Source of the DNA: Rickettsiales bacterium
Lineage (GTDB): Bacteria; Pseudomonadota; Alphaproteobacteria; Rickettsiales; UBA3002
Direction of reading: 5' to 3'
NCBI GenBank assembly: GCA_049314715.1
Contig: JBMOEL010000002.1
Coordinates: 1 to 38,874, forward strand
DNA length: 38,874 nucleotides
Of the stretch, positions 4,878 through 35,101 are shown piece by piece. The notes beneath the pieces were generated by a model, which was not told the origin of the DNA, ran no database searches, and saw only the letters and a program-made list of their open reading frames with translations. Position 1 is the first letter of the stretch; the number at the start of each line of letters is the position of its first letter. The translations under genes were made by a program, and so were the position numbers.

Positions 4878-4909
4878 ATTCTACCAAGGAATACTTAAGT
4901 TTTGGTTAA
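4878..4909 (-). promoter_or_regulatory. virB3 promoter with TTAA-N7-TTAA (CtrA-type) site
   Basis: Minus strand TTAA-CCAAAAC-TTAAG (4909-4894), 10 nt, then TAGAAT (4883-4878) as the -10. Confidence 0.65.
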
Positions 4910-4957
4910 GAGAGGGGGATGGTTGTTAGTAGTTTTGTGGCATTTTTGTTATGAGAA

Positions 4958-5027
4958 CCTGCGTAGCGCCGTAGCTGCGCGAGCCGCTTGCGGCGGGGGA
5001 GTCGCGAGGGGGTAAGACCCCCTCGAA
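4958..5027. repeat. GC-rich REP-like palindromic element at the ftsY 3' end
   Basis: Hairpins GCCGC-tt-GCGGC (4983-4994) and perfect CGAGGGGGT-aag-ACCCCCTCG (5005-5025); no adjacent U-tract. Confidence 0.55.
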
Positions 5028-6017
5028 CTAAGATTTTACACCGACCAGAGCCTTGGCAAATGCTTCTGCGTCAAAGGCTTGCAAATCGGCGACGCCCTCA
5101 CCCACCCCAATCGCGTGAATCGGCAGGCCAAATTGTTCGGCCAATGCCACGACGACACCTGCTTTTGCTGTACCGTCGAGCTTGGTGACGATAAGCCCTG
5201 TCACCCCTGCAGTATCCTTGAATGCTGCGACTTGCGAAAGCGCGTTTTGGCCAGTCGTTGCGTCAAGCACCTGAATCACGGCGCTGGGTGCGGTACCATC
5301 TATTTTTTGAATGGAACGGATGATTTTTTGTAGCTCGGCCATGAGGTTGTCTTTGGTGTGCAACCGCCCTGCGGTATCGATGAATAACAGATCGATATGT
5401 TCGTGCTTCGCCTGCTCCATTGCGCGGTAAGCAACTGCCGCAGGGTCTGAGTTTTCTGCACCTGTAATACACGGCACATCGGCGCGTTTTGCCCATTCCA
5501 AAAGCTGCTCCACTGCGGCGGCGCGGAAGGTGTCAGCGGCCGCCAACATCACCTTTTTACCTTGTGATTTATAGTGCGAGGCGAGCTTACCAATGGTCGT
5601 TGTTTTACCGTTACCATTCACGCCGACGACGAGAATACATATAGGTTTGTCCGCTACTCCCTCCCCCACAGGGGGAGGGTTGGGGTGGGGGCATAAGGGC
5701 ACGTTCAACGTATCCATAAGCCCCCCTCCTAACCTCCCCCCCCCTCCTAACCTCCCCCCTGCGGGGGGAGGAACAGCCACTACTAATCGCCTTGCAATCG
5801 CCTCGGCAAGTAGGTTTTTTATTTCATCTTCGGTAATATCCTTATCGACGCGACCTTGCGAAATTTCGGCAACGATGCTCGCTGCAGCCTTGGCGCCCAC
5901 ATCGCTCATGATGAGCAGTTCTTCTAACTCCTCTAATGTCGCTGCATCTAATTTTTTATGGGTAAAAATTTCTGCGAAGCGCGAGGAAGTTTTGAAAAGT
6001 CCAGAGAAAAGACTCAT
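5028..6017 (-). CDS. ftsY: Signal recognition particle receptor FtsY (short NG-type) with in-frame repeat insertion
   Basis: [32 protein letters not shown]; ~40-aa Gly/Pro-rich insert between the N and G domains. Confidence 0.97.
5656..5774. mobile_element. Bipartite palindromic repeat (REP/RPE-like) inserted in frame in ftsY
   Basis: Two 9-bp hairpins, CCCTCCCCC-aca-GGGGGAGGG (5659-5679) and CCTCCCCCC-tgc-GGGGGGAGG (5751-5771), lie in mutually inverted arms. An 18-bp tandem duplication encodes GGRLGG twice. Confidence 0.8.
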
Positions 6018-6020
6018 GGC

Positions 6021-7259
6021 TCAGGCCGCAAATAGCATGTTGGGTGATGCACTCGCCACACTGACAGCACAAAGCGAACCGACAGGCATTTCATGAGTGA
6101 GTGTCACGGGCGCGAAGGTTTCGCTATGTCCTGTTTTGCCGCCCTGCTCGACCACGATATTGATGGTTTTACCTACACACGTTTGTAGATATATCGTGAC
6201 TTGCTTTTCACCTGCTTCGCGCAAACGCGCAGCGCGTTCTTTGCGCAAGGCCATCGCAACTTGCGGCATTTTCGCAGCGGGCGTGCCCGCGCGCGCGGAG
6301 TATGGGAAAACGTGCAGATACGTCAGATTCGCTTCCTCCACCAAACGCAAAGTGTTCTCGAACATTGCATCCGTCTCGGTTGGGAAGCCCGCAATAATAT
6401 CTGCGCCGTACACCATATCAGGGCGCAACTGACGCACTTTTTCACAAAACTCGACGATATCTTTGCGTAAGTGGCGGCGCTTCATGCGCTTCAACACCAT
6501 GTCATCACCCGCTTGCAAACTGACATGCAGATGGGGCATCAAGCGCGGCTCTTCCGCGATAAGTCGATAGAGATCATCATCCACTTCCACTGCATCAATC
6601 GACGAAAGGCGCAGGCGTTTTAGCTCCGGCACTTGCGCCAATACACGGCGCATCATTTGGCCGAGTGTTGGCTCGCCCGGCAAATCCTTGCCGTAATCGG
6701 AAACATCTACACCCGTAAACACGACTTCATTGTAGCCATTCTCAACCAGCGTGCGCACTTGCGCGACGATTTCGCCGATAGGAACGGAACGCGAATTACC
6801 GCGACCATAGGGAATAATACAAAACGTGCAGCGATGGTTGCAGCCATTCTGCACTTGAATGAAGGCACGTGCACGACCATCGAACGACGCAACGAGATGC
6901 GATGCGGTTTCTTTCACCGACATAATATCATTCACCTGCGCGCGCTCAGTATCCACGCTCAAATACGGCGCAGCCTTCATCTTCTCATCATTGCCGAGAA
7001 CAGCGTTCACCTCGGGCATTGCTTTGAAATCTTCGGCGTGTACTTGCGCTGCACAGCCCGTAACAATGATACGCGCATTGGGGTTCTCGCGCCGCGCACG
7101 ACGAATCGACTGGCGCGCTTGTTTCTCGGCTTCCGCTGTCACCGCGCAGGTATTGAAAATAATGGTGTCTTTCAGCCCCGCCGCTTCGGCGTGAGTCTTC
7201 ATCACTTCGCTTTCGTAAGTGTTCAGGCGGCAACCAAATGTGACAACATTAACCGACAT
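6021..7259 (-). CDS. mtaB: tRNA t6A37 methylthiotransferase MtaB (radical SAM)
   Basis: TFGCRLNTYES, NTCAVT, VTGC, CNHRCTFC; conserved dapF-mtaB-ftsY order. Confidence 0.95.
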   Translation of the reverse strand: MSVNVVTFGCRLNTYESEVMKTHAEAAGLKDTIIFNTCAVTAEAEKQARQSIRRARRENPNARIIVTGCAAQVHAEDFKAMPEVNAVLGNDEKMKAAPYLSVDTERAQVNDIMSVKETASHLVASFDGRARAFIQVQNGCNHRCTFCIIPYGRGNSRSVPIGEIVAQVRTLVENGYNEVVFTGVDVSDYGKDLPGEPTLGQMMRRVLAQVPELKRLRLSSIDAVEVDDDLYRLIAEEPRLMPHLHVSLQAGDDMVLKRMKRRHLRKDIVEFCEKVRQLRPDMVYGADIIAGFPTETDAMFENTLRLVEEANLTYLHVFPYSARAGTPAAKMPQVAMALRKERAARLREAGEKQVTIYLQTCVGKTINIVVEQGGKTGHSETFAPVTLTHEMPVGSLCAVSVASASPNMLFAA

Positions 7260-8073
7260 ATTCGCCCTTGAATACGTAGGCCACGGGCCCCGTCATCAAG
7301 ACACGACCATTACCTTCGCCTTGTATCCATTCAATCTCCAGCGTACCACCCGGAAGTTCCACGCTTACTTTACGCGCGCAGAGTTCGCGGCGCACAGCGG
7401 CAACCACCGCAGCACAGGCAGCGGAACCACAGGCGAGCGTTTCACCCGTACCGCGTTCCCACACTTTCATGCGTAGACGATTCGCATCAAGCACTTGCAC
7501 GGCGCTGATATTGGCGCGCTCAGGGAAGAGTGGATTCACTTCCAACTTTTTGCCCCACTCACCCATACGCACGAAGTTGGTATCGCGCACGAAGAAAATC
7601 GCGTGTGGGTTGCCCATGTTCACGGCGACAGGGTCCATCAACCCGCCTTCTTCTAAACCGAGGTGCAGCGTATTGCGCGATTCGCTGAGCGGAATCTGCT
7701 GCCAGTCCCATTTTGGTTCGCCCATATCGACTTGAACCAAGTCTGCACCGATACGCGTTGCATTAACTACGCCAGCACCTGTTTCGATAGTTACCTTATC
7801 TTTCTTTAATTCGCGCATCAGCATGTCGCCCACGCAACGCGACGCATTGCCGCAGGTCGAAATTTTCGACCCATCACAGTTATATATATGCATGTAAGCA
7901 TCAGCGGTTTTGGAATTGTCGATGACCACCAGTTGATCGCAACCAATACCCAAGCGCCTGTCAGCGAGATGCTTCGCCAAGGCTTCGTCGATTTTCAATG
8001 CATGTTTACGCACATCAATGACTACAAAGTCATTGCCGGTGCCGTGCATTTTTTGGAATGGTATGTTGCTCAT
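7249..8073 (-). CDS. dapF: Diaminopimelate epimerase
   Basis: KMHGTGNDF, CGNASRC, MGNPH, WERGTGETLACGS. Confidence 0.97.
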   Translation of the reverse strand: MSNIPFQKMHGTGNDFVVIDVRKHALKIDEALAKHLADRRLGIGCDQLVVIDNSKTADAYMHIYNCDGSKISTCGNASRCVGDMLMRELKKDKVTIETGAGVVNATRIGADLVQVDMGEPKWDWQQIPLSESRNTLHLGLEEGGLMDPVAVNMGNPHAIFFVRDTNFVRMGEWGKKLEVNPLFPERANISAVQVLDANRLRMKVWERGTGETLACGSAACAAVVAAVRRELCARKVSVELPGGTLEIEWIQGEGNGRVLMTGPVAYVFKGEYVG

Positions 8074-8181
8074 AGTCCGCGCTTATAGCGCAGCCAAAGG
8101 CTTAAGCGCCATTAAAAAATAACCCACGCTTGGACGGCCGTTGAGGCCGAAAGCCCCAGCGGCGCTTGAGCGCACTAAATA

Positions 8182-8637
8182 CTAAAACGGAATCTCATCA
8201 TCGAGCGAGGCTTCGGCCACCTTTGAACGCTGATAGCCACCAGCAGCCGGAGCGTCATAACCACCTGCTCCTTCCTCGCGGTCGCGCTTGTCAAGCATGG
8301 TGAGGTTGCCGTTATAGCCCTGCAACACCACTTCGGTGCTGTATTTGTCTTGGCCGGATTCTTTGTCCTGCCATTTGCGGGTTTGGAGCTGGCCTTCAAT
8401 ATAGACTTTCGCGCCTTTTTTCAGGTAATTCTTCGCGACGGTCACCAAATTATCGTTGAAAATCACCACACGGTGCCACTCGGTCTTTTCTTTGCGCTCG
8501 CCCGTGTTCTTATCTTTCCATGTATCGGACGTTGCAATCGTAAGGTTGCAGATTTCGCGCCCGTCTTGGGTTGCGCGTACTTCAGGGTCTTTGCCCAGAT
8601 TACCGACTAAAATTACTTTGTTGATGCTGCCAGCCAT
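8182..8637 (-). CDS. ssb: Single-stranded DNA-binding protein
   Basis: [19 protein letters not shown] ... C-terminal DDEIPF. Confidence 0.98.
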
Positions 8638-8708
8638 TGTCGTCACTCCGTTTGGTTTTGTAGAGCGTCACTATACGGTCTATTTGCGGCCATGCAACGG
8701 CTTTCCCA

Positions 8709-13936: not shown

Positions 13937-15289
13937 ATGTTTGATTCACTTTCAAAACGTCTGAGCGCATCCTTTGACAAACTTCGTAGTCGCGGCACCT
14001 TGAGTGAAGCGGATGTGGATGCAGCGTTGCGCGATATTCGCATGGCGTTGATTGAGGCGGATGTCGCCTTGCCCGTTGCCAAAGAATTCATCGCCAGCCT
14101 CAAAGAAAAAATCGTCGGTGAGAAAATCGTTGCGAGTGTTTCACCCGGTCAGATGGTTGTGAAGCTGGTGCATGATGCGCTGGTGCAATTGCTTGGCAGT
14201 GAGACCGCAGAAATTAATTTGCACACCTCCCCACCTGCAGTGATTTTGATGTGCGGTTTGCAAGGTTCGGGCAAAACCACCAGCACGGGTAAACTCGCCA
14301 AACGCCTCAAAGAAAAGCAGCGCAAGAAAGTATTGGTCGCCTCGCTCGATATTTACCGCCCTGCCGCACAGGAGCAGCTGGCAACCGTTGCGAAGGCGGC
14401 GGATGTAACGTCGCTGCCGATTGTTGTAGGCGAAAAACCTGAAACTATCACTATGCGCGCGCTGCAGATGGCGCGCACCGAAGGTTACGACGTGCTGCTA
14501 CTCGATACCGCAGGTCGTTTGCATATTGATGATGTCTTGATGGACGAGCTGAAGGCCGTGCGCGATTTGGCAAAACCAATCGAGACATTGTTGGTTGCGG
14601 ATTCGTTGACGGGACAAGATGCGGTGAATATCGCCAAGGCGTTTCATGAGTCGATTGGTGTGACGGGTATTATTCTCACACGTCTGGATGGTGATGGGCG
14701 TGGTGGTGCGGCACTGTCGATGAAACATATTACCGGTCAGCCAATTAAATTCGCCGGTATGGGCGAGAAGCTGGATGAGTTTGAAGTTTTCCACCCCGAG
14801 CGCATTGCCAGCCGCATTCTCGATATGGGTGACGTGGTGAGCTTCGTAGAAAAAGCTGCCGAGAATTTTAGCGAGCAAGACGCCAAAGCAGCAATGGAAA
14901 AAATGCAGTCGGGCAAGTTCGATATGAACGACATGCTGCAGCAGATGAAACAAATCCAGAAAATGGGTGGCATGGGCGCGATGCTCAATATGCTGCCGGG
15001 TGCTGCTAAAATTCAAGAAGCGATGAAAGGCCAAAGCATCGATGAAAAACGCATCAAGCATCAAGAGGCGATGATTTTGTCTATGACCAAGGCAGAGCGC
15101 GCTAACCCGAATTTACTTAATGCTTCCCGCCGCCGCCGCATCGCGATTGGTGCAGGGCGCACGGTGCAGGAGTTGAACCAGCTCATCAAGCAGTACCAGC
15201 AAATGGAAACCATGATGAAGCAAATGAAGAAAATGGGCATGAAAGGCTTGGCCAACCCAGCGAATCTCAAGCGATTATTTGGGGGTTAG
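13937..15289 (+). CDS. ffh: Signal recognition particle protein Ffh
   Basis: GLQGSGKTT, DIYRPAA, DTAGR, RLDGDGRGG and Met-rich M domain. Confidence 0.98.
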   Translation: MFDSLSKRLSASFDKLRSRGTLSEADVDAALRDIRMALIEADVALPVAKEFIASLKEKIVGEKIVASVSPGQMVVKLVHDALVQLLGSETAEINLHTSPPAVILMCGLQGSGKTTSTGKLAKRLKEKQRKKVLVASLDIYRPAAQEQLATVAKAADVTSLPIVVGEKPETITMRALQMARTEGYDVLLLDTAGRLHIDDVLMDELKAVRDLAKPIETLLVADSLTGQDAVNIAKAFHESIGVTGIILTRLDGDGRGGAALSMKHITGQPIKFAGMGEKLDEFEVFHPERIASRILDMGDVVSFVEKAAENFSEQDAKAAMEKMQSGKFDMNDMLQQMKQIQKMGGMGAMLNMLPGAAKIQEAMKGQSIDEKRIKHQEAMILSMTKAERANPNLLNASRRRRIAIGAGRTVQELNQLIKQYQQMETMMKQMKKMGMKGLANPANLKRLFGG

Positions 15290-16092
15290 TGAATGGTTTC
15301 GCCAGTTCCATTACCACCACGCGCCCAACCTTCTCCGCTCGGCGGCTTTATACGAGGCTCAAATAAACCGTTAATTCTATCCCACTCCGTATTCATCAAA
15401 GTAGCCATTTCACGACACACGTCAGATGCTCTAAGATATCCTATCGCCTCCATTACCTGAGGCATGGTGTCTGTAATTTCATTTTGCGTCGTTGCTGGTA
15501 ACTTATCCCAAGTTAAGCGAAACCGATCAAGTAACGTCTTGGCTTCTTTTGGATTATTTGCTAAATTTTCACCTTCGCGGAACCAGTCATACACATCTTG
15601 CATCTGAACTGCCAGAGGATGTGAAATACGCTCTAAATCATTCATGTCTTTCATGTCTGCTTCAAGTGCTGATTGCATGTTTTCTGACGTCAGTTCACTC
15701 AAATACGCCGTTTGTTGCGAACGTAAGTTCTGCGCGCAGAAATGAAACCACTCTTGTCTATTAATCGCTCCGGGATGTGCTGATGGGGTAGACTTCACCA
15801 TTCGTGATAACACTAGTGGCGCCATTTTTTTAAGTGTTTCAATTGGTGTTATTTCACCTTCAAGGACATGGCCTTTGCTCATCAAAAAATCACGCGACTG
15901 AATTGCCATCTCTGTGAAATGTTCAAATGTTTCCCGTCTATCTTCATTATTGAAATTAACACTACTCTCCGTAGGCTCTGCATCTAATACAGGAAACGCA
16001 TCCTTCATGTTTCCCCTTGCCGCTTCCAACCTATCGGCAAAGGCGAACATGTCTATTATGAGGGGTTCTTGGGGCTGTTCCATTCTGTCCAT
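15286..16092 (-). CDS. Hypothetical protein (orphan, helical, acidic)
   Basis: 268-aa ORF filling the ffh-rpsP gap and visibly AT-richer than its neighbours; no family recognised. Confidence 0.75.
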   Translation of the reverse strand: MDRMEQPQEPLIIDMFAFADRLEAARGNMKDAFPVLDAEPTESSVNFNNEDRRETFEHFTEMAIQSRDFLMSKGHVLEGEITPIETLKKMAPLVLSRMVKSTPSAHPGAINRQEWFHFCAQNLRSQQTAYLSELTSENMQSALEADMKDMNDLERISHPLAVQMQDVYDWFREGENLANNPKEAKTLLDRFRLTWDKLPATTQNEITDTMPQVMEAIGYLRASDVCREMATLMNTEWDRINGLFEPRIKPPSGEGWARGGNGTGETIH

Positions 16093-16125
16093 ATCATTAT
16101 CTTACCATAACCTATTGAAATAGTT

Positions 16126-16141
16126 GTGAAGATTTTGTTAC
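16126..16141 (-). promoter_or_regulatory. Shared direct-repeat motif GTAA-N7-TTCAC
   Basis: GTAACAAAATCTTCAC, 33 nt before the ATG at 16092. Confidence 0.55.
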
Positions 16142-18474: not shown

Positions 18475-18513
18475 TCACGTCTTTCACGATTTTGATGATT
18501 GGAAAGTCTTCGC

Positions 18514-19926
18514 ATGAGCGCAAGACCACGTACAGTTTTTGATAAAATTTTTGATGCACATCTCGTCCATGAGGCAGAGGACGGCACGTGCCTGCTTTAT
18601 ATCGACCGTCACTTGGTGCATGAAGTCACCAGCCCTCAAGCCTTCGAAGGGTTGCGCACTGCGGGTCGTAAAGTACATAAGCCCGAAGCAACGTTGGCGG
18701 TGGCTGATCATAACGTACCCACGACGAGCGACCGCCTGCAAGGCATCAAAGACGAAACGTCGCGCATTCAAGTTCAAACGCTTGAAGACAACACCAAAGA
18801 ATTCGGCGTGCAGTATTTCAAGATGGACGATCTGCGCCAAGGCGTTGTGCATATTGTTGGGCCTGAGCAAGGCTTCACCCTTCCCGGTGCGACGATTGTG
18901 TGCGGCGACTCACACACCTCGACGCATGGTGCGTTTGGCGCACTTGCATTCGGTATTGGCACGAGTGAAGTCGAGCATGTGCTGGCCACCCAAACACTAA
19001 TTCAAAAGCGTGCGAAGAACATGCGCGTCACCGTCGATGGCACCTTGCCTATCGGCGTGACCGCGAAAGATATTACGCTCGCCATCATCGGTAAAATTGG
19101 TACGGCTGGCGGCACAGGCTATGTGATTGAGTATGCAGGGTCGGCGATTCGTGAACTCAGCATGGAAGGTCGCATGACCGTGTGCAACATGAGCATCGAG
19201 GCAGGTGCGCGTGCGGGTCTGATTGCGCCGGACGAGAAAACATTCGAATACCTCAAAGGCCGCCCAATGGCGCCAAAAGGTGAGTTGTGGGACAAGGCCG
19301 TTGCATGGTGGAAAACCCTGCCAAGCGATGCGGATGCGAAGTTTGACGCGGAAATCACGCTCAATGCGGCTGACATACTTCCGCAAGTTACGTGGGGCAC
19401 CAGCCCGCAGGATGTTCTGCCGATTAATGGCAAAGTCCCCTCACCTACGGATTTCGAAGAAGCACGCCGCGAGACGATTGCGCGTTCGCTTGAATATATG
19501 GGTCTTACCGCAGGTACACCACTTACCGACATCGCCATTGATAAAGTGTTCATTGGTTCATGCACCAATGGCCGTATCGAAGATTTGCGCGCTGCTGCAA
19601 AAATCGTCGACGGAAAGAAAGTCGCAAGCTCCGTGAAACTTGCCATGATTGTTCCGGGCTCTGGCCTTGTGAAGCAACAAGCCGAGCAAGAAGGCTTGGA
19701 TAAAATTTTCATCGCTGCCGGATTTGAATGGCGCGAAGCAGGCTGCTCGATGTGCCTTGCTATGAATAATGACCGCTTGTCACCTGGCGAACGTTGCGCC
19801 GCGACCAGCAATCGAAATTTCGAAGGTAGGCAAGGCCGTGGTGGCCGCACCCATCTGATGAGTCCCGCCATGGCCGCTGCCGCCGCGATTACGGGAAAAC
19901 TGGCAGATGTAAGGAATTTCCAATGA
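18514..19926 (+). CDS. leuC: 3-isopropylmalate dehydratase large subunit
   Basis: [43 protein letters not shown]. Confidence 0.98.
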
Positions 19927-20804
19927 GTACCGATCCCCTAAAGACCGCTGCCATCGGCACGGCGCGTGACTACCAGAACCTGCCAGCGTGGCAGAAATCG
20001 ATGATGCTTGCCGAGCAAGTATTCGAGCAAACCGAAAAATTCCCTGCGCGTGAGCATGCAGGTTTGGCTGCACAACTGCGCCAAACGGCAACCTACGTCG
20101 CCAGCGCGATTGCCGCGGCAAGCGCAGCGAGCGACAGCTTGGAAATCATCGAGTTCTACCGTGAAGCGCAATCAGCACTCGCTGAACTTTCAACCCAACT
20201 TCAACTCGCTGAGCGTTTGAAATACATCGAAGCTTCAGACGTGCAAGACGAGATTGATGCGATCACCCGCTTGCTAATTGGTATGCAGCATGGGCTGAAA
20301 ATCGCCGCGCGCGATGCAGAACGTGCCGAGCAAGTGGCACAGCGTGAAGAGCGCAGCAAAGCACGCGAAGAGCGTGGTGGTGACCGCCCCTTCAAAAAAC
20401 CTTACGAAAAGCGTGAAGGTGCTGAAGACCGTCCACGTCGTGAATTCAAGCCACGTGACCGTGATGACCGCCCATCGCGTGATGGTGGTGATCGCCCTTA
20501 CAAAAAGCCGTACCAGAAGCGCGAAGGTGGTGAAGACCGCCCACGTCGTGATTTCAAACGCGATGACGCGCGCGGTGGTGACCGTCCTTACAAAAAGCCT
20601 TATCAAAAACGTGAAGATGGTGATGCGCCGCGCCGCGAATACAAGCCGCGTGACCGCGATGCACGCCCAGCGCGTGATGGTGGCGACCGTCCATACAAAA
20701 AGCGTGAGGACACGCGCGGCGACCGTCAAGGATACGGCGGCAGCAAGAAGCCATATGTGAAGCGTGACTTCGGCGGCAAACCTAAACCACGTAGCCGCGA
20801 CTAG
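19923..20804 (+). CDS. Four-helix-bundle (23S rRNA IVP-like) protein fused to a repetitive charged tail
   Basis: N-terminal [11 protein letters not shown]...[14 protein letters not shown]...[10 protein letters not shown] pattern; ~150-aa tail of GGDRP(Y/F)KKPY(Q/E)KRE..RPRR repeats; ATGA overlap with leuC. Confidence 0.8.
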
Positions 20805-20806: not shown

Positions 20807-20953
20807 ATGAACTTGTTCTCTGAAATCGCTGCCATATTCAAAAGCATCTTCACTAAGAAGCGCGACGATGAATGGGCAGCGCGTTTCACCAACCCGCCTA
20901 CACGTCGTGATGGCAAATTACCGCTCATGCCGGGTGAATCGGAGTTAAGCTAA
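20807..20953 (+). CDS. Candidate 48-aa small protein
   Basis: [48 protein letters not shown]; starts 2 nt after the previous stop; TAATG overlap with leuD. Confidence 0.6.
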
Positions 20954-21552
20954 TGCAAAAGTTCACCAGTATTTCTGCAATCGCTGCCCCGCTCCCGTTG
21001 CAAAACGTGGATACGGATATGATTATCCCGAAGCAGTTCCTGAAAACCATTAAGCGCACGGGTCTCAAAGAAGGCCTGTTTTACGAAATGCGCTATACGG
21101 TCGAAGGCAAAAAGATTGAGGATTTCGTATTGCACCGCGAGCCTTACACGGCAGCGGAAGTGCTGGTGTCGTTTGATAATTTCGGCTGCGGTTCCAGCCG
21201 CGAGCACGCGCCATGGGCGCTGCTAGATTTCGGCATTCGCTGCGTGATTGCGCCGTCATTTGCCGATATTTTCTATAATAACTGCTTCAAAAACGGCATT
21301 CTGCCCATCGTGCTGCCGCGCGATCAGGTGGAATCGCTGATGCAGCATGCGCAATCGTCGACCAACAAAATTACCGTTGATTTGCCGTCGCAGACCATCA
21401 AAGCTGGAAACCATGAATTCCGCTTCGATGTGGACGCATTCCGCAAGCATTGCCTGCTCAACGGGCTCGATGATATCGGCTTAACACTTGAGAAAAAGGC
21501 TAATATCGCCAGCTTTGAGGCGCAGCGTAGCCAAGCATTTCCTTGGCTTTAA
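20953..21552 (+). CDS. leuD: 3-isopropylmalate dehydratase small subunit
   Basis: [40 protein letters not shown]. Confidence 0.98.
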
Positions 21553-22024: not shown

Positions 22025-23143
22025 ATGACAAAGACCGTCCTATTACTGCCCGGTGATGGCATCGGCCCTGAAGTGGTCGCTCAAGCAAAACGCGTGCTCG
22101 AATGGGCTGCCAGCGCAGCAGGCACTTCGTTTGTTTTTGATGAAGCATTGCTTGGTGGCTCGGCATATGACGCAGTGGGCACTCCCTACCCTGCTGAAAC
22201 ACTCGAGAAAGCCAAGAAGGCAGATGCGATTTTATTGGGTGCCGTTGGTGGCCCGAAATGGGAATCATTGGATTATGCCGTGCGCCCAGAGCGCGGCTTG
22301 CTCGGTATTCGCAAAGACCTCGATTTGTTTGCGAATCTGCGCCCTGCCATGTGCTTCCCTGCACTGGCGGATGCTTCGACACTCAAAGCAGATGTCATTT
22401 CGGGTCTGGATATTCTCATCGTGCGCGAACTGACGGGTGATATTTATTTTGGTCAACCACGTGGTGTTACCGTTGAAAACGGTCATCGCGTTGGTCGCAA
22501 CACCATGATTTATGCTGATTGGGAAGTCACGCGCATTGGCCGCGTAGCGCTGGAGCTTGCGCGTAAGCGTAACAAAAAACTCTGCTCGGTGGATAAAGCG
22601 AACGTGCTTGAGACCACCGAAATGTGGCGCGAAGAAGTGCAAAAACTGCGCGACGGCGAGTATACCGATATCGAGCTGAGCCATATGTATGTTGATAATG
22701 CGGCCATGCAATTGGTGCGCAATCCAAAGCAATTTGACGTGATGGTGACGGGCAATATCTTTGGCGATATTCTCTCCGATTGCGCGGCGATGCTTACTGG
22801 GTCATTAGGTATGCTTCCATCCGCATCTTTGGGCTCTGAAAATGAATTGGGTCATCGCAACGCGCTCTACGAACCTGTGCATGGTTCGGCGCCTGATATT
22901 GCGGGCAAAGGCATTGCCAACCCGATTGCTACGATTCTTTCAGTGAGCATGATGCTGCGTTATTCATTCAATATGCTGCGCGAAGCAGATCTCGTCGATA
23001 AAGCCATTGCAGACGTGCTGGAGCAAGGCTTACGCACGGGCGATATTATGCAAGACGGCAAGAAAAAAGTCGGCACTAGTGAGATGGGCGACGCTGTTCT
23101 TTATGCCCTTGCGCGTCTACACGCAGAGCACAGGGTTGCTTAA
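22025..23143 (+). CDS. leuB: 3-isopropylmalate dehydrogenase
   Basis: [35 protein letters not shown]. Confidence 0.98.
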
Positions 23144-24246: not shown

Positions 24247-24262
24247 GTGAAGTTTTGTTTAC
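24247..24262 (-). promoter_or_regulatory. Shared direct-repeat motif GTAA-N7-TTCAC
   Basis: GTAAACAAAACTTCAC, then 22 nt, then CATAAT; the motif ends 34 nt before the ATG. Confidence 0.55.
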
Positions 24263-25372: not shown

Positions 25373-26047
25373 TTAGAAATTAGGTAGTACACTTCCAGGA
25401 TTTTCGATTGCCTTTCTTACCGCACCCAATGCTTCTGGATTCAGCGCTTTATGATCAACATCATCAAGACGGCACGGCAAAAGCCCTACTAATTTATCTG
25501 CATTTCGATACTTAGCTACCTCTGCGAACATGCTGGCGGGAGGCTTATTATTATCGCCGATTCCGTTGAAATTGACCCATAGCTTAGCCTTTGGAAATAG
25601 GTGCGACGGGCGAGTGAAGGCTAACAACTCGTCTACTGTTTTTTGACCGCTATCATTCAGCGTCAGGTGACTGCCCACGATGATGGCTTTAATTTCACCA
25701 CCCTTGGGAAGTCTTTCGGACTCTTCACGAAGCGCATCCCAGCATTCTGGTATATCGTTTATATTTGTAATCCGAGCCTTATATCGCACGCCTGCGCTGT
25801 GGCCTTCAACAGCTTTTGCACCCTTATCTTTGAGCGCTGCTTTAAAGGACTCTCTATCTTCCTCTTGTTGATTGGCTAATTCTGCTTGCAGGCCATTTTC
25901 AGTCACCGCAACGGCCAATACTTTGTAACCCTGCTCCTTGAGCAGCGGTTTCAATTCTGCTACGCGGCTTGGAATATCAATCAGAACTAGAGTCTGATTG
26001 ACACCCGAGTGTCCATTTTTGCCGTTTCTACCATTAGTGCTTTTCAT
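25373..26047 (-). CDS. Hypothetical protein with degenerate receiver-like N-terminus
   Basis: Start taken at MKSTNG (26047). 'LVLIDIP...LKPLLKEQGYKVLAVA' resembles beta1-alpha1-beta2 of a REC domain but lacks the acidic pair. Confidence 0.7.
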   Translation of the reverse strand: MKSTNGRNGKNGHSGVNQTLVLIDIPSRVAELKPLLKEQGYKVLAVAVTENGLQAELANQQEEDRESFKAALKDKGAKAVEGHSAGVRYKARITNINDIPECWDALREESERLPKGGEIKAIIVGSHLTLNDSGQKTVDELLAFTRPSHLFPKAKLWVNFNGIGDNNKPPASMFAEVAKYRNADKLVGLLPCRLDDVDHKALNPEALGAVRKAIENPGSVLPNF

Positions 26048-26083: not shown

Positions 26084-26099
26084 GTGACAATTACGTGAC
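26084..26099 (-). promoter_or_regulatory. Shared direct-repeat motif GTCAC-N6-GTCAC
   Basis: GTCACGTAATTGTCAC, then 23 nt, then TAGATT; the motif ends 36 nt before the ATG at 26047. Confidence 0.55.
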
Positions 26100-26987: not shown

Positions 26988-28775
26988 ATGACCTACAACA
27001 TTACCGACCACTATTATGACGTGATTGTTGTGGGTGCTGGTGGCGCAGGTTTGCGTGCCACCTTCGGCATGGCAGCAGAAGGCTTATCTACCGCGTGTAT
27101 CACGAAAGTATTCCCCACCCGTTCGCACACGGTAGCGGCGCAGGGCGGTATTTCCGCAGCGCTGGGTAATATGGGGCCAGATGATTGGCGCTGGCATATG
27201 TATGACACCATCAAAGGTTCCGACTGGCTGGGCGATCAGGACGCGATTGAATATATGTGCCGCGAAGCGCCAGCTGCGATTATCGAGCTGGAGCATTATG
27301 GTGTGCCGTTCTCGCGCACGAAAGAAGGCAAAATCTATCAACGTCCGTTTGGTGGAATGACCACGAATTATGGCGAAGGTCCTGCTGCGCAGCGTACTTG
27401 CGCTGCGGCGGATCGCACGGGTCATGCGATTTTGCATACGCTTTATACGCAAGCACTGAAGCATTCAGCGAAGTTCTTCATCGAGTATTTCGCGATTGAT
27501 TTGCTGATGGATGAGGAAGGCAAATGCTGCGGAGTGATGGCATGGAATCTCGATGACGGCACGCTGCATCGCTTCTACGGTCATCAAACCGTGCTGGCCA
27601 CGGGCGGTTATGGCCGCGCCTATTTCTCGGCCACCTCGGCGCACACCTGCACCGGTGATGGTGGCGGCATGGCGGCGCGCGCGGGCGTTCCACTTCAGGA
27701 TATGGAATTCGTGCAATTTCACCCCACGGGCATTTACGGCTCCGGCTGCTTGATTACCGAAGGCGCTCGCGGTGAAGGCGGTTACCTTGTGAATAGCAAG
27801 GGTGAGCGCTTTATGGAGCGTTATGCACCTTCGGCAAAAGATTTGGCCTCGCGCGATGTCGTGTCGCGCTCGATGACGATGGAAATCCGCGAAGGTCGCG
27901 GTGTTGGTACGGAGGGCGATCATATCTTCCTGCATCTTGACCATCTCGACCCTGCGGTGCTGCATGCGCGCTTACCAGGCATTTCCGAAACCGCGCAAAT
28001 CTTCGCGGGCGTGGATGTGACCAAGCAACCTATTCCCGTCATTCCCACCGTGCATTACAACATGGGCGGCGTGCCGACCAATTATCATGGTGAAGTGGTG
28101 ACGCTCAAAAATGGCAACCCCGACGCGGTCGTTGAAGGCTTGATGGCGATTGGTGAAGCGGGCTGCGTTTCCGTCCATGGGGCGAATCGCCTTGGTTCAA
28201 ACTCGCTGCTCGACCTCGTGGTATTTGGCCGTGCGGCAGCGCATCGTGCACGTGATATTGTGAAGAAAGGCGCGCGCGTGAAAGCAGCGCCGCAAGCTGC
28301 AACTGACAAAGTGCTGTCGCGTCTAGATGCCATTCGCCATGCAAAAGGCAGCACACGTACCTCAACCATTCGTAAGGCGATGCAGCGTGTCATGCAAAAT
28401 CACGCCGCCGTATTCCGCACATCAGAATCGCTCAAAGAAGGCGTTAGCAAAATGAAGGCGGTCTATGATTCGTTTGATGATTTAGTGATTTCTGACCGCG
28501 GCATGATTTTCAACTCCGACCTCGTTGAAGCGCTGGAGCTGGATAACCTACGCGCCCAAGCGCTGGTGACGGTGGTTTCTGCCGAGAATCGCAAAGAAAG
28601 TCGCGGCGCGCACGCGCATGAAGATTTCCCAGATCGTAACGACGAGCAATGGATGAAACATTCCATTTGCTGGATCGACGAAAAAGGAAACACCAAAATG
28701 GATTATCGCCCCGTGCATATGAATGTGCTGAGCGACGACGTAAAACCCATTCCACCAAAGAAGCGCGTCTATTAA
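26988..28775 (+). CDS. sdhA: Succinate dehydrogenase flavoprotein subunit
   Basis: [32 protein letters not shown]. Confidence 0.99.
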
Positions 28776-29608
28776 TGAATCTATCGCGTCACATTGTTAT
28801 TGCTTCTGCCGCATTACTAGTGGTTTCGGCCTGCGCCAAACCAACAACGCAGCGCCCTGTTTCCAGCAAAGAAGAAATTCAGCGCGAACAGCAACTTCAG
28901 GCGCAAGCGGCCAAACAAGCCAACATGCATTTCAACGATAAAAAGAAGTATAGCGCTGAAGATATCAAGATAATGGCGGGGCGTTTGGGCGTGATTTCGG
29001 GACCGATTGAGCAAGCATCTGGCCAGCTTTGCATGGAGCTGACGAACGGTAAGGGAAAATGCACGTTTGAAGTTATTTTGGATGCAGATGAGAAAGGCTT
29101 AAACGCCCATGCGGATGGACAGAATGTGGTCGTCTATCCTGCGATGATTGATTTCGCGCGAAATGATAGCCAACTTGCCTTCGTCATTGCGCATGAATTC
29201 GCCCATAACATCATGGGGCATCAACAAGCCCTGATGCGTAACGTAACTATCGGCGCCGTATTAGGAACGCTGGTTGATGTGGCAGCTTCCTCGCAAGGTG
29301 CAAACACGCAAGGGCAATTCGGCCAACTCGGCGCGCAGCAGGGGCAGCTCAGCTACAGCTCGGAATTTGAGCATGAGGCGGACTATGTGGGGTTATACAT
29401 ACTGGCTCGTGCTGGTTTCAAAATTGAAGACGCACCTAATTTCTGGCGTGAAATGTCACTGGCCGAGCCTGATGCGATTTATATCAGCACCACCCACCCC
29501 AATAATCCTCAGCGCACCATTGAGATGGATAAAGTCGTGAAAGAGATTCGTGCCAAGCAGCAGCAAGGTCTGCCGCTACTACCCAACATTAAAGTGAAGA
29601 AATCCTGA
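28775..29608 (+). CDS. M48-family Zn metalloprotease lipoprotein
   Basis: Start MNLSR (TAATG overlap with sdhA), lipobox VSAC, LNAHA, HEFAH, YSSEFEHEAD, THP. Confidence 0.9.
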   Translation: MNLSRHIVIASAALLVVSACAKPTTQRPVSSKEEIQREQQLQAQAAKQANMHFNDKKKYSAEDIKIMAGRLGVISGPIEQASGQLCMELTNGKGKCTFEVILDADEKGLNAHADGQNVVVYPAMIDFARNDSQLAFVIAHEFAHNIMGHQQALMRNVTIGAVLGTLVDVAASSQGANTQGQFGQLGAQQGQLSYSSEFEHEADYVGLYILARAGFKIEDAPNFWREMSLAEPDAIYISTTHPNNPQRTIEMDKVVKEIRAKQQQGLPLLPNIKVKKS

Positions 29609-31210: not shown

Positions 31211-31230
31211 TTCTACCTTAACACTTCATT

Positions 31231-31262
31231 AAAAAACCCCGCGACTTTCATCGCGGGGTTTT
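31231..31262. terminator. Bidirectional intrinsic terminator
   Basis: AAAACCCCGCGA-ctttca-TCGCGGGGTTTT between the convergent pilin and carD genes. Confidence 0.85.
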
Positions 31263-31285
31263 CGTTTTGCCATACGCTCTTATTA

Positions 31286-32044
31286 TTAAGCGGCTTGCTT
31301 GCGCAATACCTTCAGCAGCTTGTCATGTGCAGATTTTACATCCACACGCTCCGACGCAGCAACTTCACCCACCAAACGGTGCATGGCGGTCTCATAAATC
31401 ATACGCTCTGAATACGAACGTTCTGATTGGTCAACGTTCTTATGCAGGTCACGCACGACTTCCGCGATCTGAACCAGATTGCCAGAATTGATTTTTGCTT
31501 CATATTCCTGCGCACGACGGCTCCACATACCACGGGCGATTTTCGCACGGCCTTTAAGGGTCGTGATCGCACGTGAAATCTGGTCGTTTGGCGAAATCGA
31601 ACGGAGGCCCGCCGCTTCCGCGCGGTTCAATGGCACGCGCAGCGTCATCTTGTCTTTTTCGAAGTTGATGACGAATACTTTCAGTTCGTATTCACCGATC
31701 TTCTCGGCCTCGATGCCCATAATGCGGCCAACACCGTGCGTTGGGTACACCACGTACTCACCGACTGCGAAACCTTTTTTTGCTGCTGGAGCAGCCACTG
31801 CCACAGGCGCACTCATCACTGGCTTGGGAGCAACCACTGCCATTGGCTTTTTCACTTCTACTTTTTTGCTACCTGGTTTTACGGTCGACTTCACGGCCGC
31901 TTTCACATTCGCTTTTTTCACGAGTGTTTTCTTCGCTACGACTTTCTTAGCAGCTGCTTTCTTTGCCGCAGGCTTTTTCGCTACGGTTTTTTTCGCCGTT
32001 AATTTTTTGGACATTACTTTTTTTGATTTTGTCTTGGTCGCCAT
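31286..32044 (-). CDS. carD: CarD/CdnL transcription regulator with Lys/Ala-rich N-terminal extension
   Basis: VVYPTHGVG, WSRRAQEYEAKINSG, AEVVRDL, SYSER; ~90-aa AKK-rich leader. Confidence 0.95.
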   Translation of the reverse strand: MATKTKSKKVMSKKLTAKKTVAKKPAAKKAAAKKVVAKKTLVKKANVKAAVKSTVKPGSKKVEVKKPMAVVAPKPVMSAPVAVAAPAAKKGFAVGEYVVYPTHGVGRIMGIEAEKIGEYELKVFVINFEKDKMTLRVPLNRAEAAGLRSISPNDQISRAITTLKGRAKIARGMWSRRAQEYEAKINSGNLVQIAEVVRDLHKNVDQSERSYSERMIYETAMHRLVGEVAASERVDVKSAHDKLLKVLRKQAA

Positions 32045-32290
32045 GTTTTGTTACCCCTTTAGTGACAGAACGCTGCCTCGGTTACACAACTCAACTCACT
32101 ACAACATCCCTTGGACATCTGCCTCAGGCAGTTGCCTCAACACGTAATTAGTGTCTTGGGAATCCTCTCTCACTGAGGATGGCAGGGTTATAGCACAAAA
32201 TTTGGGCAAATAGAATGGTAAAAATTTAGTTAATTACCGAATAAATCTATTGCGAAAATTATTTCACTATAAAAATCAATTACTTAACTG

Positions 32291-32626
32291 TCAATCACCT
32301 GTGCCTGCTTCGGGGCTAAACAGGGTTTCGAACTTGTTTTCGACTGTTTTAAAGTCGTCTGCATCGGCTGGGGCGGGCTTCTTTTTGGTAATCACGGGCC
32401 ATTTCATCGCATATTCGCGGTTAATCTCGACCCACTTTATCAAATCCTCCGCTTCAGGCTTGATGGCCTCGACTGGACATTCAGGCTCGCACACGCCGCA
32501 ATCAATACATTCATCGGGGTGGATGACGAGCATGTTCTCGCCCTCGTAGAAACAATCCACGGGGCAGACTTCTACGCAGTCCATATACTTACAACGGACA
32601 CAGGCATCGGTAACAACGAAGGTCAT
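32291..32626 (-). CDS. fdxA: Ferredoxin FdxA (7Fe-type)
   Basis: [30 protein letters not shown]. Confidence 0.96.
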
Positions 32627-33357
32627 GCGCGCGATTTATGACTAATCTTAGAAATTTGCAAGCGTCGGATTTTTTGTTCGTTGAGTGCGGCACCTGTTCG
32701 CAGCAATAGAATCGCAAGTACAAGCAGGGTTGCGCCCACCAGCATGATGAGCAGTGGAATACGCATGCTTGGGTCAATCGCTGACGTACCATCAAAACGT
32801 AAAAGACCTGCGGGTTGGTGCAGCGTGTTCCACCATTCCACCGAGAATTTAATGATTGGAAGATTAATCGCGCCGACAATACAAAGCCACGCAGCGGCGA
32901 TTCGTCCCTTCTCGCTCTGCTGGCCAGCATTAGCAACGGCGAGATAGCCTGCGTAAAGAAAGAGTTGAATGAGCATGCTGGTCAAACGCGCATCCCACAC
33001 CCAATAGGCGCCCCACATGGGTTTACCCCAGAGCATTCCTGTTGCGAGCGTGATGGCAGTCAGCGTTAAACCAATGGCGGCTGCTTCGCGCGCAATGACA
33101 TTGGCCAGCGTATGGCGCCAAATCAGATAGCTAATCGACAGCGCGGCCATGATGCCATAAAGCGCTGATGCCAGCATCGCTGCAGGCACATGAATATACA
33201 TGATACGGACGCTGATGCCCTGCTGGTAATCGGGTGGTGCGACATGGAATACGAGATAGAGCGCATAGCTGATAAGCAACAGCGCCAGCACCGCTGCGAC
33301 AGGCAGCAGCACCTTACTCATGCGGGCAAAACGCGCTGGGTTGGCAAAACGATGCAT
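32623..33357 (-). CDS. ccmC: Heme exporter / cytochrome c biogenesis protein CcmC
   Basis: [30 protein letters not shown]. Confidence 0.96.
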
Positions 33358-33431
33358 GAGGGCTATATGTCACCCAAACATTCAGGAATCAAGCATAACC
33401 AGTCGCTTGTTGGCCGTACTCAGGGCGCAGC

Positions 33432-33463
33432 GTCATAAATTCTTAACATTTCTGGGCTATACT
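33432..33463 (+). promoter_or_regulatory. Shared direct-repeat motif plus -10 box
   Basis: GTCA-TAAATTC-TTAAC, 10 nt, then TATACT; same spacing as at virB3. Confidence 0.6.
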
Positions 33464-33477
33464 GAGACTGAGGTATT

Positions 33478-34233
33478 ATGCCAACAAGACTGCAAAATAT
33501 TATCGGCCCTATCACAACTCATGAGCCAAATTCAACTCCAGTGGCCCAATCCACTATTGATGTTGTTACGCCAGTTATTAATTTCGCCACCTTAGGAGCA
33601 AACCAAACCATTACAAGCGCTGGCAATGGCGATATCCCAGGGTCCGCTGCAAATGGAGCAGCTACTGTCTATAATGGTGCAAACGCTGCAAATACTGTTC
33701 GCGCTTTTGGAGCTACTGGTACAATTGCTGCGGAAGGGTTTTCTTTTTCTGGACTGCTTGAATCCGCATTGAATCCATTGGGTTTAATAGCGTTTGGGTC
33801 GCTCGCATACTACAACATGGGCGCAAATGAACATTACAAGCACCAAGCTGGAATACAGCGTATCGATGAAGTGCTGGCACAACACCCTGAAGCAGTACGA
33901 TACATGGCTAGTCTTGTACCTGCATTGGACAGCAGTCATCATCTATCGGATCCTCGGCTCGATAGCATCGCCCATACGCGACATGCGTTATCACGTTACG
34001 GTGACAGCTATACGCACGAATGGTGGCCTCCACACATGGGTGAAGGCTATTATGCACCCATAGTTGAACAAGGCAGTCGTAGCCGTGATATGAATCATGC
34101 CATCGCACAGTACTTCTTGGATAATCCTGAAGATCTAGTAGTTGCAGAAGCTGAATTAGGGGCTGCTCAAGAAGCATCAAGGCTTGCAGCTTACCGCCCT
34201 AGAATTCCTGGCCAACCTTACGAAAGATTCTAG
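33478..34233 (+). CDS. Hypothetical protein (Ala/Gly/Asn-rich N-half, hydrophobic central segment)
   Basis: 251-aa ORF with GAGG SD and its own promoter; no family recognised. Confidence 0.75.
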   Translation: MPTRLQNIIGPITTHEPNSTPVAQSTIDVVTPVINFATLGANQTITSAGNGDIPGSAANGAATVYNGANAANTVRAFGATGTIAAEGFSFSGLLESALNPLGLIAFGSLAYYNMGANEHYKHQAGIQRIDEVLAQHPEAVRYMASLVPALDSSHHLSDPRLDSIAHTRHALSRYGDSYTHEWWPPHMGEGYYAPIVEQGSRSRDMNHAIAQYFLDNPEDLVVAEAELGAAQEASRLAAYRPRIPGQPYERF

Positions 34234-34274
34234 CCCCCATTGCGTCAGCGTTTTGCTTCGACTAGGCTGTGCGC

Positions 34275-35048
34275 ATGGAACATACCAAGAAACTTCTCAA
34301 TATCATGGCCAAGCTGCGTAACCCCAACGGTGGTTGCCCGTGGGACTTGGAACAGAACTTTAAAACCATCGCGCCTTACACGATTGAAGAAGCCTATGAG
34401 GTAGCGGATGCGATTGCGCGCGGCGATATGGATGGCCTCAAAGAAGAGCTGGGCGATTTGTTACTGCAAGTGGTATTTCATTCGCAAATGGCTGCCGAGG
34501 AAAATCTCTTCACCTTTGAAGATGTCGCGCAGATTATTGGCGAAAAAATGGAGCGCCGCCACCCGCATGTGTTTGGTGACGCCACCATCAAAGACGCCGA
34601 AGCGCAGACCGAGAATTGGGAAAATATCAAAGCCGAAGAACGGAAGCGAAAATCAGGCGATAGTATATTAGCGGATGTGCCCGCCGCCCTGCCCGCCCTC
34701 ATGCGCGCCGAGAAACTGCAAAAACGTGCCGCGCGCGTCGGCTTCGATTGGCCAGACACACGCGGTGTGCGCGATAAAATTTTAGAAGAGCTGAGCGAGT
34801 GTGATGAAGCCATTGCATCTGGCGATAAGGCACATATGCAAGAAGAAATTGGTGATTTGTTATTTGCCGTGACGAACCTTGCGCGCTTTCATGGCATCGA
34901 CCCCGAGGAGGCGCTGCGCCAGACCATTGCGAAATTCGTAAAACGTTTTCAATTCATCGAAGCCGCGCTGAAAACGCAGAATAAGAAATGGGAAGAGACT
35001 AACTTGGACGAAATGGAAGCACTTTGGCAAAAGGCGAAGACAGCTTAA
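34275..35048 (+). CDS. mazG: Nucleoside triphosphate pyrophosphohydrolase MazG
   Basis: GCPWD, EEAYEV, EELGDLLLQVVFH, RRHPHVF and a second domain with EEIGDLLF; alternative GTG start at 34269. Confidence 0.97.
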   Translation: MEHTKKLLNIMAKLRNPNGGCPWDLEQNFKTIAPYTIEEAYEVADAIARGDMDGLKEELGDLLLQVVFHSQMAAEENLFTFEDVAQIIGEKMERRHPHVFGDATIKDAEAQTENWENIKAEERKRKSGDSILADVPAALPALMRAEKLQKRAARVGFDWPDTRGVRDKILEELSECDEAIASGDKAHMQEEIGDLLFAVTNLARFHGIDPEEALRQTIAKFVKRFQFIEAALKTQNKKWEETNLDEMEALWQKAKTA

Positions 35049-35051
35049 ATT

Positions 35052-35067
35052 GTCATTAAACCTTCAA
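35052..35067 (+). promoter_or_regulatory. Shared direct-repeat motif GTCA-N7-TTCAA
   Basis: GTCATTAAACCTTCAA, then 22 nt, then TAAATT; the motif ends 34 nt before the ATG at 35102. Confidence 0.5.
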
Positions 35068-35101
35068 AATATGTCTTTTTTTTATGTGCTAAATTACAAG
35101 C

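Follow-up and report, generated by a model that had tools for sequence, protein, structure and literature searches.

The window analysed here is the whole 38,874-nt contig JBMOEL010000002.1 (contig C2) of a draft Rickettsiales genome (assembly GCA_049314715.1), in which a short direct repeat, KTMA-N7-KTMA, stands before the virB3 gene of a type IV secretion system (T4SS) and before five scattered genes. A preliminary description of this DNA took the six sites for one motif that joins the secretion system to orphan genes. We find that KTMA-N7-KTMA is two motifs: a Pho-box-like direct repeat with KTCA half-sites and a CtrA-type box with TTAA half-sites. The Pho-box-like element defines a regulon whose size we put at about 100 promoters or more; they drive fast-turnover, species-specific and mostly signal-peptide-less proteins as well as virB2 of the T4SS, and its signature is found family-wide. 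The overall explanation that we favor, with a probability of roughly 70%, is that these KTCA boxes form a regulon read by the response regulator PhoB and that the virB3 box of this genome is a separate, CtrA-type element.

The draft genome comprises 1.78 Mb in 194 contigs with 50% G+C, at 86% completeness and 4% contamination. A crude codon-usage open reading frame (ORF) picker yielded 1823 genes (92% coding) with equally crude starts, and 870 intergenic stretches of at most 200 nt each, 106 kb in total, served as the upstream set. Within the window there are 28 matches to KTMA-N7-KTMA compared to 17.6 ± 4.3 in shuffled sequence, a level reached by 1 of 100 shuffles. Genome-wide, with a spacer of 7 nt, the gene strand of the upstream stretches has 183 matches and the opposite strand 128, and there are 27-58 matches at spacers of 2-6 and 8-15 nt; 200 shuffles of the same stretches gave 35.5 ± 5.4 with a maximum of 51. 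Because spacer 7 exceeds both the other spacers and the shuffles, the motif is real; its count clearly exceeds what shuffled AT-rich intergenic DNA yields, the comparison on which the preliminary description had staked its claim.

The excess splits according to the half-sites. Pairs of KTCA occur 94 times where about 8 are expected and pairs of TTAA 43 times where about 6 are expected; in contrast, the four hybrid combinations of TTAA and KTCA reach a total of 17 where about 8.5 are expected, an enrichment of about 2-fold compared to 7- to 11-fold for the pure pairs. Pairs with a weaker half are also enriched (GTAA/TTCA, 6 vs 1.3; GTCA/GTAA, 8 vs 1.5), and two of the orphan sites in the window have the weaker GTAA as their first half. 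The consensus of the 94 KTCA sites is aAT[CT][GT]TCA[CT][CA]AAA[CT][CT][GT]TCA[CT]A; its period is 11 bp, and G and T are about equally frequent at the first half-site position. On a 22-nt position weight matrix (PWM) derived from this genome's KTCA sites, the orphan sites in the window score 14.6-22.0 bits and the virB3 site 3.9 bits, so the single motif proposed for virB3 and the orphans gives way to two classes. When the half-sites are masked, the linker and flanks place the orphan sites on the KTCA side (log-likelihood ratio, LLR, of +2.2 to +9.3) and the virB3 site in between, at +0.6; the leave-one-out means are +4.9 for the KTCA class and -5.6 for the TTAA class.

The KTCA element also has a direction and a fixed position. 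Genome-wide, 99 PWM matches reach 18 bits, and 88 of them fall within the 8% of the DNA that is intergenic; where the two flanking genes run in the same direction, 50 intergenic sites are oriented with the downstream gene and 9 against it. A TANNNT hexamer follows the second TCA at 22-23 nt in 59% of the KTCA sites and at 11 nt in 11% (n = 98), whereas 39% of the TTAA sites (n = 28) have one 11-12 nt downstream. These results bear out most of what had been described for the window itself, whose genes we name by the position of their start codon. All six site strings lie where they had been placed, the 16-nt motif ends 33, 34, 36, 30, and 34 nt before the ATGs of the five orphans (16092, 24212, 26047, 33478, and 35102), and the distance to the -10 hexamer is one or two helical turns: measured from the 15-mer, 11 nt for virB3 and 33478 and 22-24 nt for the others (Table 1). 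This distance now sorts by class, 11-12 nt for TTAA and mainly 22-23 nt for KTCA. The orphan sites thus belong to a directional, position-constrained element with an 11-bp period, like the OmpR-family cis-element that had been proposed.

The 120 PWM matches of at least 16 bits lead to 109 distinct downstream genes, a minimum for the number of targets. The controls were 110 genes drawn at random from the contigs that carry the targets, each with an upstream intergenic stretch of 50 nt or more and no box match. With families called at E ≤ 1e-4, and with the lack of a Pfam family serving only as a proxy for orphan status, 93 of the 109 targets have no Pfam family compared to 24 of the 110 controls (Fisher p = 3e-22); the Pfam-bearing genes are 16 of the targets (5/55 and 11/54 in two batches) and 86 of the controls. 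As predicted from the window, the box marks lineage-specific over core genes, and it enumerates a gene repertoire not just genome-wide but across the family as well. We regard it as nearly certain that this is a true motif and that it labels a regulon of orphans.

The 16 annotated targets are an M23 peptidase, an M48 peptidase, two HAD hydrolases, an inositol monophosphatase, a class-3 lipase, a chorismate mutase, an asparaginase-like protein, a cell-wall hydrolase with a peptidoglycan-binding domain, an RTX protein, a MazG paralog, UPF0262, DUF1150, weak lectin and GNAT matches, and the VirB2 pilin. Some targets are diverged housekeeping folds, as had been suggested; examples are the MazG paralog, an epimerase-like protein of the short-chain dehydrogenase/reductase (SDR) type, the HAD hydrolases, the inositol monophosphatase, and the chorismate mutase. 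The target proteins are almost all mutually unrelated, and the G+C content of their genes is slightly lower (47.6% vs 50.4%). An N-terminal hydrophobic core is found in 10% of the targets compared to 21-25% of other genes, and the C-terminal 30 residues are more hydrophilic (-0.61 vs -0.24, p = 1e-9), with few aromatic residues.

Some targets stand close together: one island (C4:2743-8303) consists of four adjacent orphans, each with its own 22-27 bit box, and contig C98 carries two adjacent box-bearing orphans and, some 770 nt beyond them, another gene with a box. A short motif like [ST]-H-x-E-R-[LV], which starts 16-23 residues from the C-terminus, recurs in some 10-20 targets (examples are C98:3531-4379, C53:2670-3716, and C44:6381-7301). 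A regular expression defined post hoc, [HWYF]x[ED]R[LVI] within the last 45 residues, matches 9 of 102 targets and 11 of 1655 other proteins. A hidden Markov model trained on 12 seeds found nothing beyond those seeds, and we keep this motif as a lead only.

The box is conserved across the family. A strict pattern, KTCAYNNAANNKTCAYA, matches 66 times in the window's own genome and 20-117 times in 24 of 24 other family genomes from 13 genera, compared to 0-2 matches for the reversed control; 16 genomes from 16 other families of the order have 0-19 matches. In the sister-family genomes G034 and G031, 22 sites lead to 21 ORFs, 17 of which have no Pfam family, and most of these sites lie 11 nt from the -10. 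The orphans 16092, 24212, 26047, and 33478 have homologs in none of 30 other family genomes, three of the same genus included (for 24212, no match at E ≤ 1e-10), which makes orthologous footprinting of their promoters impossible. Conservation of the box throughout the family, together with the lack of homologs of the orphans, argues that the cis-code is old and stable and that the genes behind it turn over. The relatives are kin to one another and are not independent samples.

Does the secretion system itself belong to this regulon? VirB4 is present in 41 of 41 genomes sampled from the order, in most of them in two copies, and the relatives in which we found it are uncultured metagenome-assembled genomes labelled Rickettsiales, Alphaproteobacteria, or similar. 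In the window's own genome, virB2 (contig C12, 1812-2183, minus strand) is followed by the gene for the second VirB4 (virB4-II), and its promoter carries GTCA-N7-GTAA-N7-GTAA, with a first pair of 16.5 bits and a last half-site 11 nt before TAGTAC. In 15 relatives, we found virB2 in 13 and its upstream sequence in 12. Boxes of 14.8-26.8 bits, often in arrays of 3-4 half-sites, precede virB2 in 10 of these 12, including the sister family f11; the other two, G011 and G016, have no box of at least 10 bits before virB2. Several relatives' loci have an extra box after virB2 and before virB4-II. Given these boxes, it is very likely that virB2 belongs to the regulon. Directly after virB2 and ahead of virB4-II (C12:1700-1811) come a G+C-rich hairpin and a run of T, so these two genes may be only partly co-transcribed; in other genera, virB4-II carries its own box.

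The virB3 promoter has a conserved position and variable half-sites. In 13 of 14 loci, read by eye, a 4-N7-4 direct repeat ends exactly 11 nt before the -10. Its half-sites are TTAA..TTAG in L099, L087, and L093, TTTA..TTAG in L088, and TTAA..CTAA in L089, and they are non-TTAA in seven other loci. Other genera have GTCA/GTCA (L090, 23.0 bits), GTAA/GTCA, GCCA/GTAA, GCCA/GCAA, or GCAA/GCAA, with a conserved CAAAAC linker. Together with the virB2 boxes, the KTCA-type virB3 boxes of these genera argue that the T4SS is a conserved member of the regulon; the site in the window's genus appears either to have changed by drift into one of the TTAA class or to have been captured by that class. The proposed link between the orphans and the T4SS therefore stands in part: it fails at the virB3 site of this genome, which is of the TTAA class, and holds through the box before virB2. 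The virB6-virB8-B9-B10-B11-virD4 operon (C91) has no match of either class on its contig, which starts within the operon region.

The genome encodes five OmpR-family regulators: a PhoB equivalog, a CtrA equivalog, two KdpE/MtrA-like paralogs, and an OmpR-like protein next to an EnvZ-like kinase. The residues with which PhoB contacts DNA are known, the recognition helix of the E. coli protein reads TGTCA, and the pho box, with the consensus CTGTCAT-N4-CTGTCAY, classically lies about 10 nt before the -10. The PhoB equivalog scores 335.6 bits on TIGR02154 (cut-off 296.2), its DNA-binding domain has E. coli PhoB (1GXP) as its top match in the Protein Data Bank, and its recognition helix, RTVDVHIRRLRKAL, is identical to that of E. 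coli PhoB over 14 residues; the helices of the four other regulators differ from it. Like the Pho box, the element has a TGTCA-like core that occurs twice in direct orientation at a period of 11 bp, separated by a 4-nt linker rich in A (94 sites), and its promoters have a -10 and no -35. The T4SS promoters and the sites in G034 lie at the classical distance of about 11 nt, and some form tandem arrays of 3-4 half-sites. A PhoR-like kinase encoded with pstB, and pstS-pstC, are present in the genome. On this evidence, PhoB is the probable binder of the KTCA boxes. Outside the family, at least 9 strict sites occur only in genomes with a PhoB equivalog, and genomes without one have 0-3; two genomes, G025 and G036, have a PhoB equivalog and zero strict sites. 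Because the genomes are kin, we treat this co-occurrence as weak evidence.

Several observations weigh against this explanation. The phosphate genes lack the box: there is no KTCA match of at least 8 bits before pstS-pstC (C102), of at least 9 bits at the phoR-like/pstB locus (C53), or of at least 7 bits in the phoB upstream stretch (C12). Four of the five regulator genes have no upstream KTCA match of at least 7 bits, and the one match in the ctrA stretch (7.5 bits) lies inside the ctrA coding sequence and not upstream. With no box at the pst, phoR/pstB, and regulator genes, neither a canonical Pho regulon nor autoregulation is seen. The PhoU domain (PF01895) was not found in this 86% complete genome. 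The main spacing of 22-23 nt sets the box a full helical turn farther from the -10 than is classical for a pho box, the first half-site position has G and T at about the same frequency, and the roughly 100 promoters are nearly all those of orphans, each a departure from the PhoB regulon. Two family genomes with many sites have no PhoB equivalog, although both are incomplete (80% and 86%). As for secretion, there is no net-charge bias in the C-terminal 25 residues of the targets, and at least three proteins with ankyrin repeats, a classic effector type, have no box. Finally, the gene calls and starts come from our own crude caller, the PWM was trained on the same genome that it scans, and several of the virB3 and phoB promoters in relatives were read from the sequence by eye.

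The TTAA class has features of its own. A CtrA equivalog scores 412.9 bits on NF045991 (cut-off 350), and two TTAA-N7-TTAA boxes lie in the ctrA promoter (C101). Other targets of this class are the terminase and tail genes of a gene-transfer agent (GTA), lon, a DUF1465 protein, which we take to be RcdA, DUF2336, hfq, RTX genes, some orphans, virB3, and phoB. In the phoB promoter, a TTAACCAT-type box, TTAA(CCAT)-N7-TTAA/TTTA, stands 11-12 nt ahead of TATAAC in 10 of the 13 family genomes compared; four of these match the strict regular expression and six were read by eye. Between the -10 and the phoB start, many family genomes (loci L154-L166 of relatives; C12:22049-22111 in our own) also have in common a conserved AAAA-N3-TTGAC-N-TGCAAG-like stretch, which could be the -35 box of a second promoter or a leader element.

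From the sequences we infer the binders (PhoB and CtrA), the activation, and the secretion of the orphans, in the following order. CtrA would activate phoB and, in the window's genus, virB3-B4-B6. PhoB, once phosphorylated (the signal presumably arrives by way of the PhoR-like kinase and Pst), would then bind the KTCA boxes at about -49 to -35, where the winged-helix dimer would recruit RNA polymerase to sigma-70-type promoters that have only a -10 and no -35. This would switch on virB2 and about 100 orphan proteins, many of which may be exported through the T4SS. The secretion system and the orphans would thus be tied together by a cascade, from CtrA to PhoB to the orphans and virB2, and not by one shared site. 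That the orphans are T4SS substrates is a putative step, which we rate at slightly less than even odds.

Other explanations account for part of these data. Chance matches in AT-rich intergenic DNA, for which the modest excess within the window might speak, are refuted by the 5-fold, spacer-7-specific excess over shuffles of the same DNA, by the direction of the sites and their fixed distance to the -10, and by the near absence of reversed matches in the 24 relatives. It is also improbable that one regulator reads one degenerate motif, with the same protein at the virB3 TTAA site and at the orphan boxes and the half-sites as weak and strong variants. Such a protein would fit the virB3 boxes of other genera, which keep the same 11-nt position with KTCA-type or GCCA-containing half-sites, the masked virB3 site, which falls between the two class means, and the site of 33478, a GTCA/TTAA hybrid at 11 nt. 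It would leave unexplained the 3.9 bits of the virB3 site on the KTCA PWM, the low enrichment of hybrids relative to pure pairs, and the geometry and targets that belong to the TTAA class (ctrA, phoB, the GTA genes, lon, and the DUF1465 protein); moreover, the recognition helices of CtrA and PhoB differ.

The KTCA box could have another reader, either a KdpE/MtrA-like paralog, the OmpR-like protein, or a protein outside the OmpR family, with PhoB keeping a small phosphate regulon. Three further OmpR-family regulators are available for this role, pstS and phoR/pstB lack the box, the distance from box to -10 is unusual for PhoB, and G025 and G036 have PhoB and no strict sites. We nevertheless consider another reader unlikely, since the TGTCA-reading helix is found in PhoB only, the consensus with its A-rich 4-nt linker fits the known pho box, and no alternative TGTCA-type motif is enriched that PhoB might bind instead. 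Accepting PhoB, one might see an ordinary phosphate-starvation regulon, in which the orphans are scavenging or stress proteins that are not exported by the T4SS and the virB2 box is incidental. The pho-box-like motif and the genes for a PhoR-like kinase, PstS, PstC, and PstB would suit this view, as would the phosphatase-type families among 3 of the 16 annotated targets (the two HAD hydrolases and the inositol monophosphatase). But none of the 109 targets is a classical Pho gene, some 100 unrelated proteins with species-level turnover do not look like a nutrient regulon, and the virB2 box is kept in most assessable relatives. In addition, 90% of the targets have no N-terminal hydrophobic core, which argues that they are not Sec-exported scavengers. 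We doubt that this is the right account, and return to a PhoB-read regulon that includes virB2, with a separate CtrA-type box before virB3.

Table 1 Boxes, -10 elements, and genes at the six sites of the window.
Feature	Position	Strand	Details
TTAA-CCAAAAC-TTAA box, virB3; CtrA-type by half-sites and geometry	4895..4909	-	KTCA PWM 3.9 bits; LLR +0.6
-10 box TAGAAT of virB3 promoter	4883-4878	-	11 nt downstream of box
virB3-virB4-virB6 T4SS operon	544..4828	-	Pfam VirB3, CagE_TrbE_VirB, TrbL
KTCA-class box GTAA-CAAAATC-TTCA, orphan 16092	16127..16141	-	PWM 17.9 bits; linker/flank LLR +5.0
-10 box TAAGAT of 16092 promoter	16104-16099	-	22 nt downstream of box
Orphan gene, 268 aa, no Pfam family	15286..16092	-	No homolog in 30 family genomes
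KTCA-class box GTAA-ACAAAAC-TTCA, SDR/epimerase-like gene	24248..24262	-	PWM 15.6 bits; LLR +9.3
-10 box CATAAT of 24212 promoter	24224-24219	-	23 nt downstream of box
Diverged NAD-dependent epimerase/SDR-like gene, 378 aa	23076..24212	-	Pfam Epimerase, E 5.5e-13
KTCA-class box GTCA-CGTAATT-GTCA, orphan 26047	26085..26099	-	PWM 15.8 bits; LLR +2.2
-10 box TAGATT of 26047 promoter	26060-26055	-	24 nt downstream of box
Orphan gene, 224 aa from ATG 26047, no Pfam family	25373..26047	-	No homolog in 30 family genomes
Hybrid box GTCA-TAAATTC-TTAA, orphan 33478	33432..33446	+	PWM 14.6 bits; LLR +3.5
-10 box TATACT of 33478 promoter	33458-33463	+	11 nt downstream of box, the minor geometry of the KTCA class
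Orphan gene, 251 aa, no Pfam family, low codon-usage score	33478..34233	+	No homolog in 30 family genomes
KTCA-class box GTCA-TTAAACC-TTCA, MazG paralog	35052..35066	+	PWM 22.0 bits; LLR +7.6
-10 box TAAATT of 35102 promoter	35090-35095	+	23 nt downstream of box
Diverged MazG/PRA-PH-like paralog, 213 aa	35102..35743	+	Pfam; 44% identity to adjoining housekeeping mazG (34269-35048)

Most of the window consists of housekeeping genes (ftsY, dapF, ssb, uvrA, ffh, rpsP-rimM-trmD-rplS, leuCDB, asd, sdhCDAB, carD, and mazG), and a few genes have no Pfam family. The preliminary description had not noticed the motif before housekeeping genes; in a PWM scan of the window at 12 bits or more this absence holds, the only further matches being one inside uvrA (9520), one on the opposite strand at 36493, and one at 16113 that overlaps the 16092 site. 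In G003, a complete genome of the same genus, rpsP directly follows ffh with no equivalent of 15286-16092 between them, and this orphan and its promoter are thus an insertion. The ESM Atlas gave nothing usable for its protein. For 26047, 8 of 10 rows of ESM Atlas model matches were Response_reg clusters at TM scores of 0.46-0.50, under the tool's bar; of the remaining rows, one was cREC_REC and the top one was Peptidase_C11 (TM 0.53), also under the bar. A CheY-like alpha/beta fold is possible for this protein on the basis of the model, and the earlier label of REC-like is weakly supported. Searches of the relatives with the MazG paralog 35102 returned mostly housekeeping MazG.

The window has a few other features. 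The 3' ends of leuB and the box-bearing SDR-like gene overlap convergently by 68 nt (23076-23143). Between leuC (18499-19926) and leuD (20953-21552) lies a gene (19923-20804) whose product has the domain of 23S rRNA intervening-sequence proteins (PF05635), and an M48 peptidase gene (28775-29608) lies within the succinate dehydrogenase cluster, flanked by sdhA and sdhB; KTCA or TTAA boxes are found at other M48-like genes of the genome. The N-terminal extension of the CarD homolog (31286-32044) matches the histone H1-like HC2 family (PF07382) below the family cut-off. Two further palindrome-like TTAA-N7-TTAA sites are found at 31218-31232, in the convergent gap between a pilin-like gene and carD, and at 35045-35059, at the end of mazG, overlapping the 35052 box. 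Beyond the window, the genome encodes flagellar and GTA genes, a PHB regulator, and ankyrin-repeat proteins.

How does this regulon compare to known systems? An effector regulon under PmrA exists in Coxiella as well as in Legionella. PMC6989116 reports that winged-helix response regulators of Legionella two-component systems directly control dozens of scattered effector genes, with about 40 effector genes under PmrAB and about 30, plus icm/dot genes, under CpxRA. Similarly, the box described here is common to a T4SS gene, virB2, and to 108 other scattered genes that are mostly unrelated and orphan. In contrast to Legionella, the T4SS here is a P-type virB/rvh system with two VirB4 copies and not Icm/Dot, the half-site differs, and there is no PmrA equivalog, as all five regulators score 106-175 bits on PRK10643 compared to a cut-off of 330; moreover, the targets here are putative substrates. 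The alphaproteobacterial CtrA box is matched by the virB3 site, a perfect TTAA-N7-TTAA in the -35 region 11 nt before TAGAAT, by the presence of a CtrA equivalog with two boxes before its own gene, and by the boxes before the GTA genes, lon, and the DUF1465 gene. In other respects the virB3 site departs from it: the second half-site is TTAG in the four closest relatives, the half-sites of other genera are non-TTAA, and the linker is atypical of the TTAA class.

Our full-text literature search, supplements aside, found no report of this motif. With the same restriction, the terms promoter, PhoB, regulon, and CtrA are absent from the text of PMC11077975, and the word motif is absent from PMC9352585 and PMC10847448. 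Schön et al. (PMC9352585) were unable to assign a verified effector to the rvh-type T4SS of basal, possibly free-living Rickettsiales, and they discuss peptidoglycan-binding and M23 proteins as possible bacteria-killing effectors.

A box common to the T4SS operon and to about 100 orphans per genome, in at least 13 genera, yields a list of candidates that does not depend on homology, in organisms that are uncultured. Because it is shared by orphan genes and the secretion operon, the box may list the proteins that the T4SS exports; the M23 peptidase and the cell-wall hydrolase with a peptidoglycan-binding domain are both on this list. More speculatively, and on balance we would not yet bet on it, PhoB may have been rewired throughout the family, whose members have two VirB4 copies and resemble basal Rickettsiales, away from the phosphate-uptake genes and onto virB2 (in some genera virB3 and virB4-II) and 50-150 orphans per genome, with the box labelling effectors and the CtrA-type box before phoB gating the program by the cell cycle. 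If this is true, a textbook nutrient regulator would have been taken over by a secretion or interaction program, with extreme turnover of its targets under a stable cis-code.

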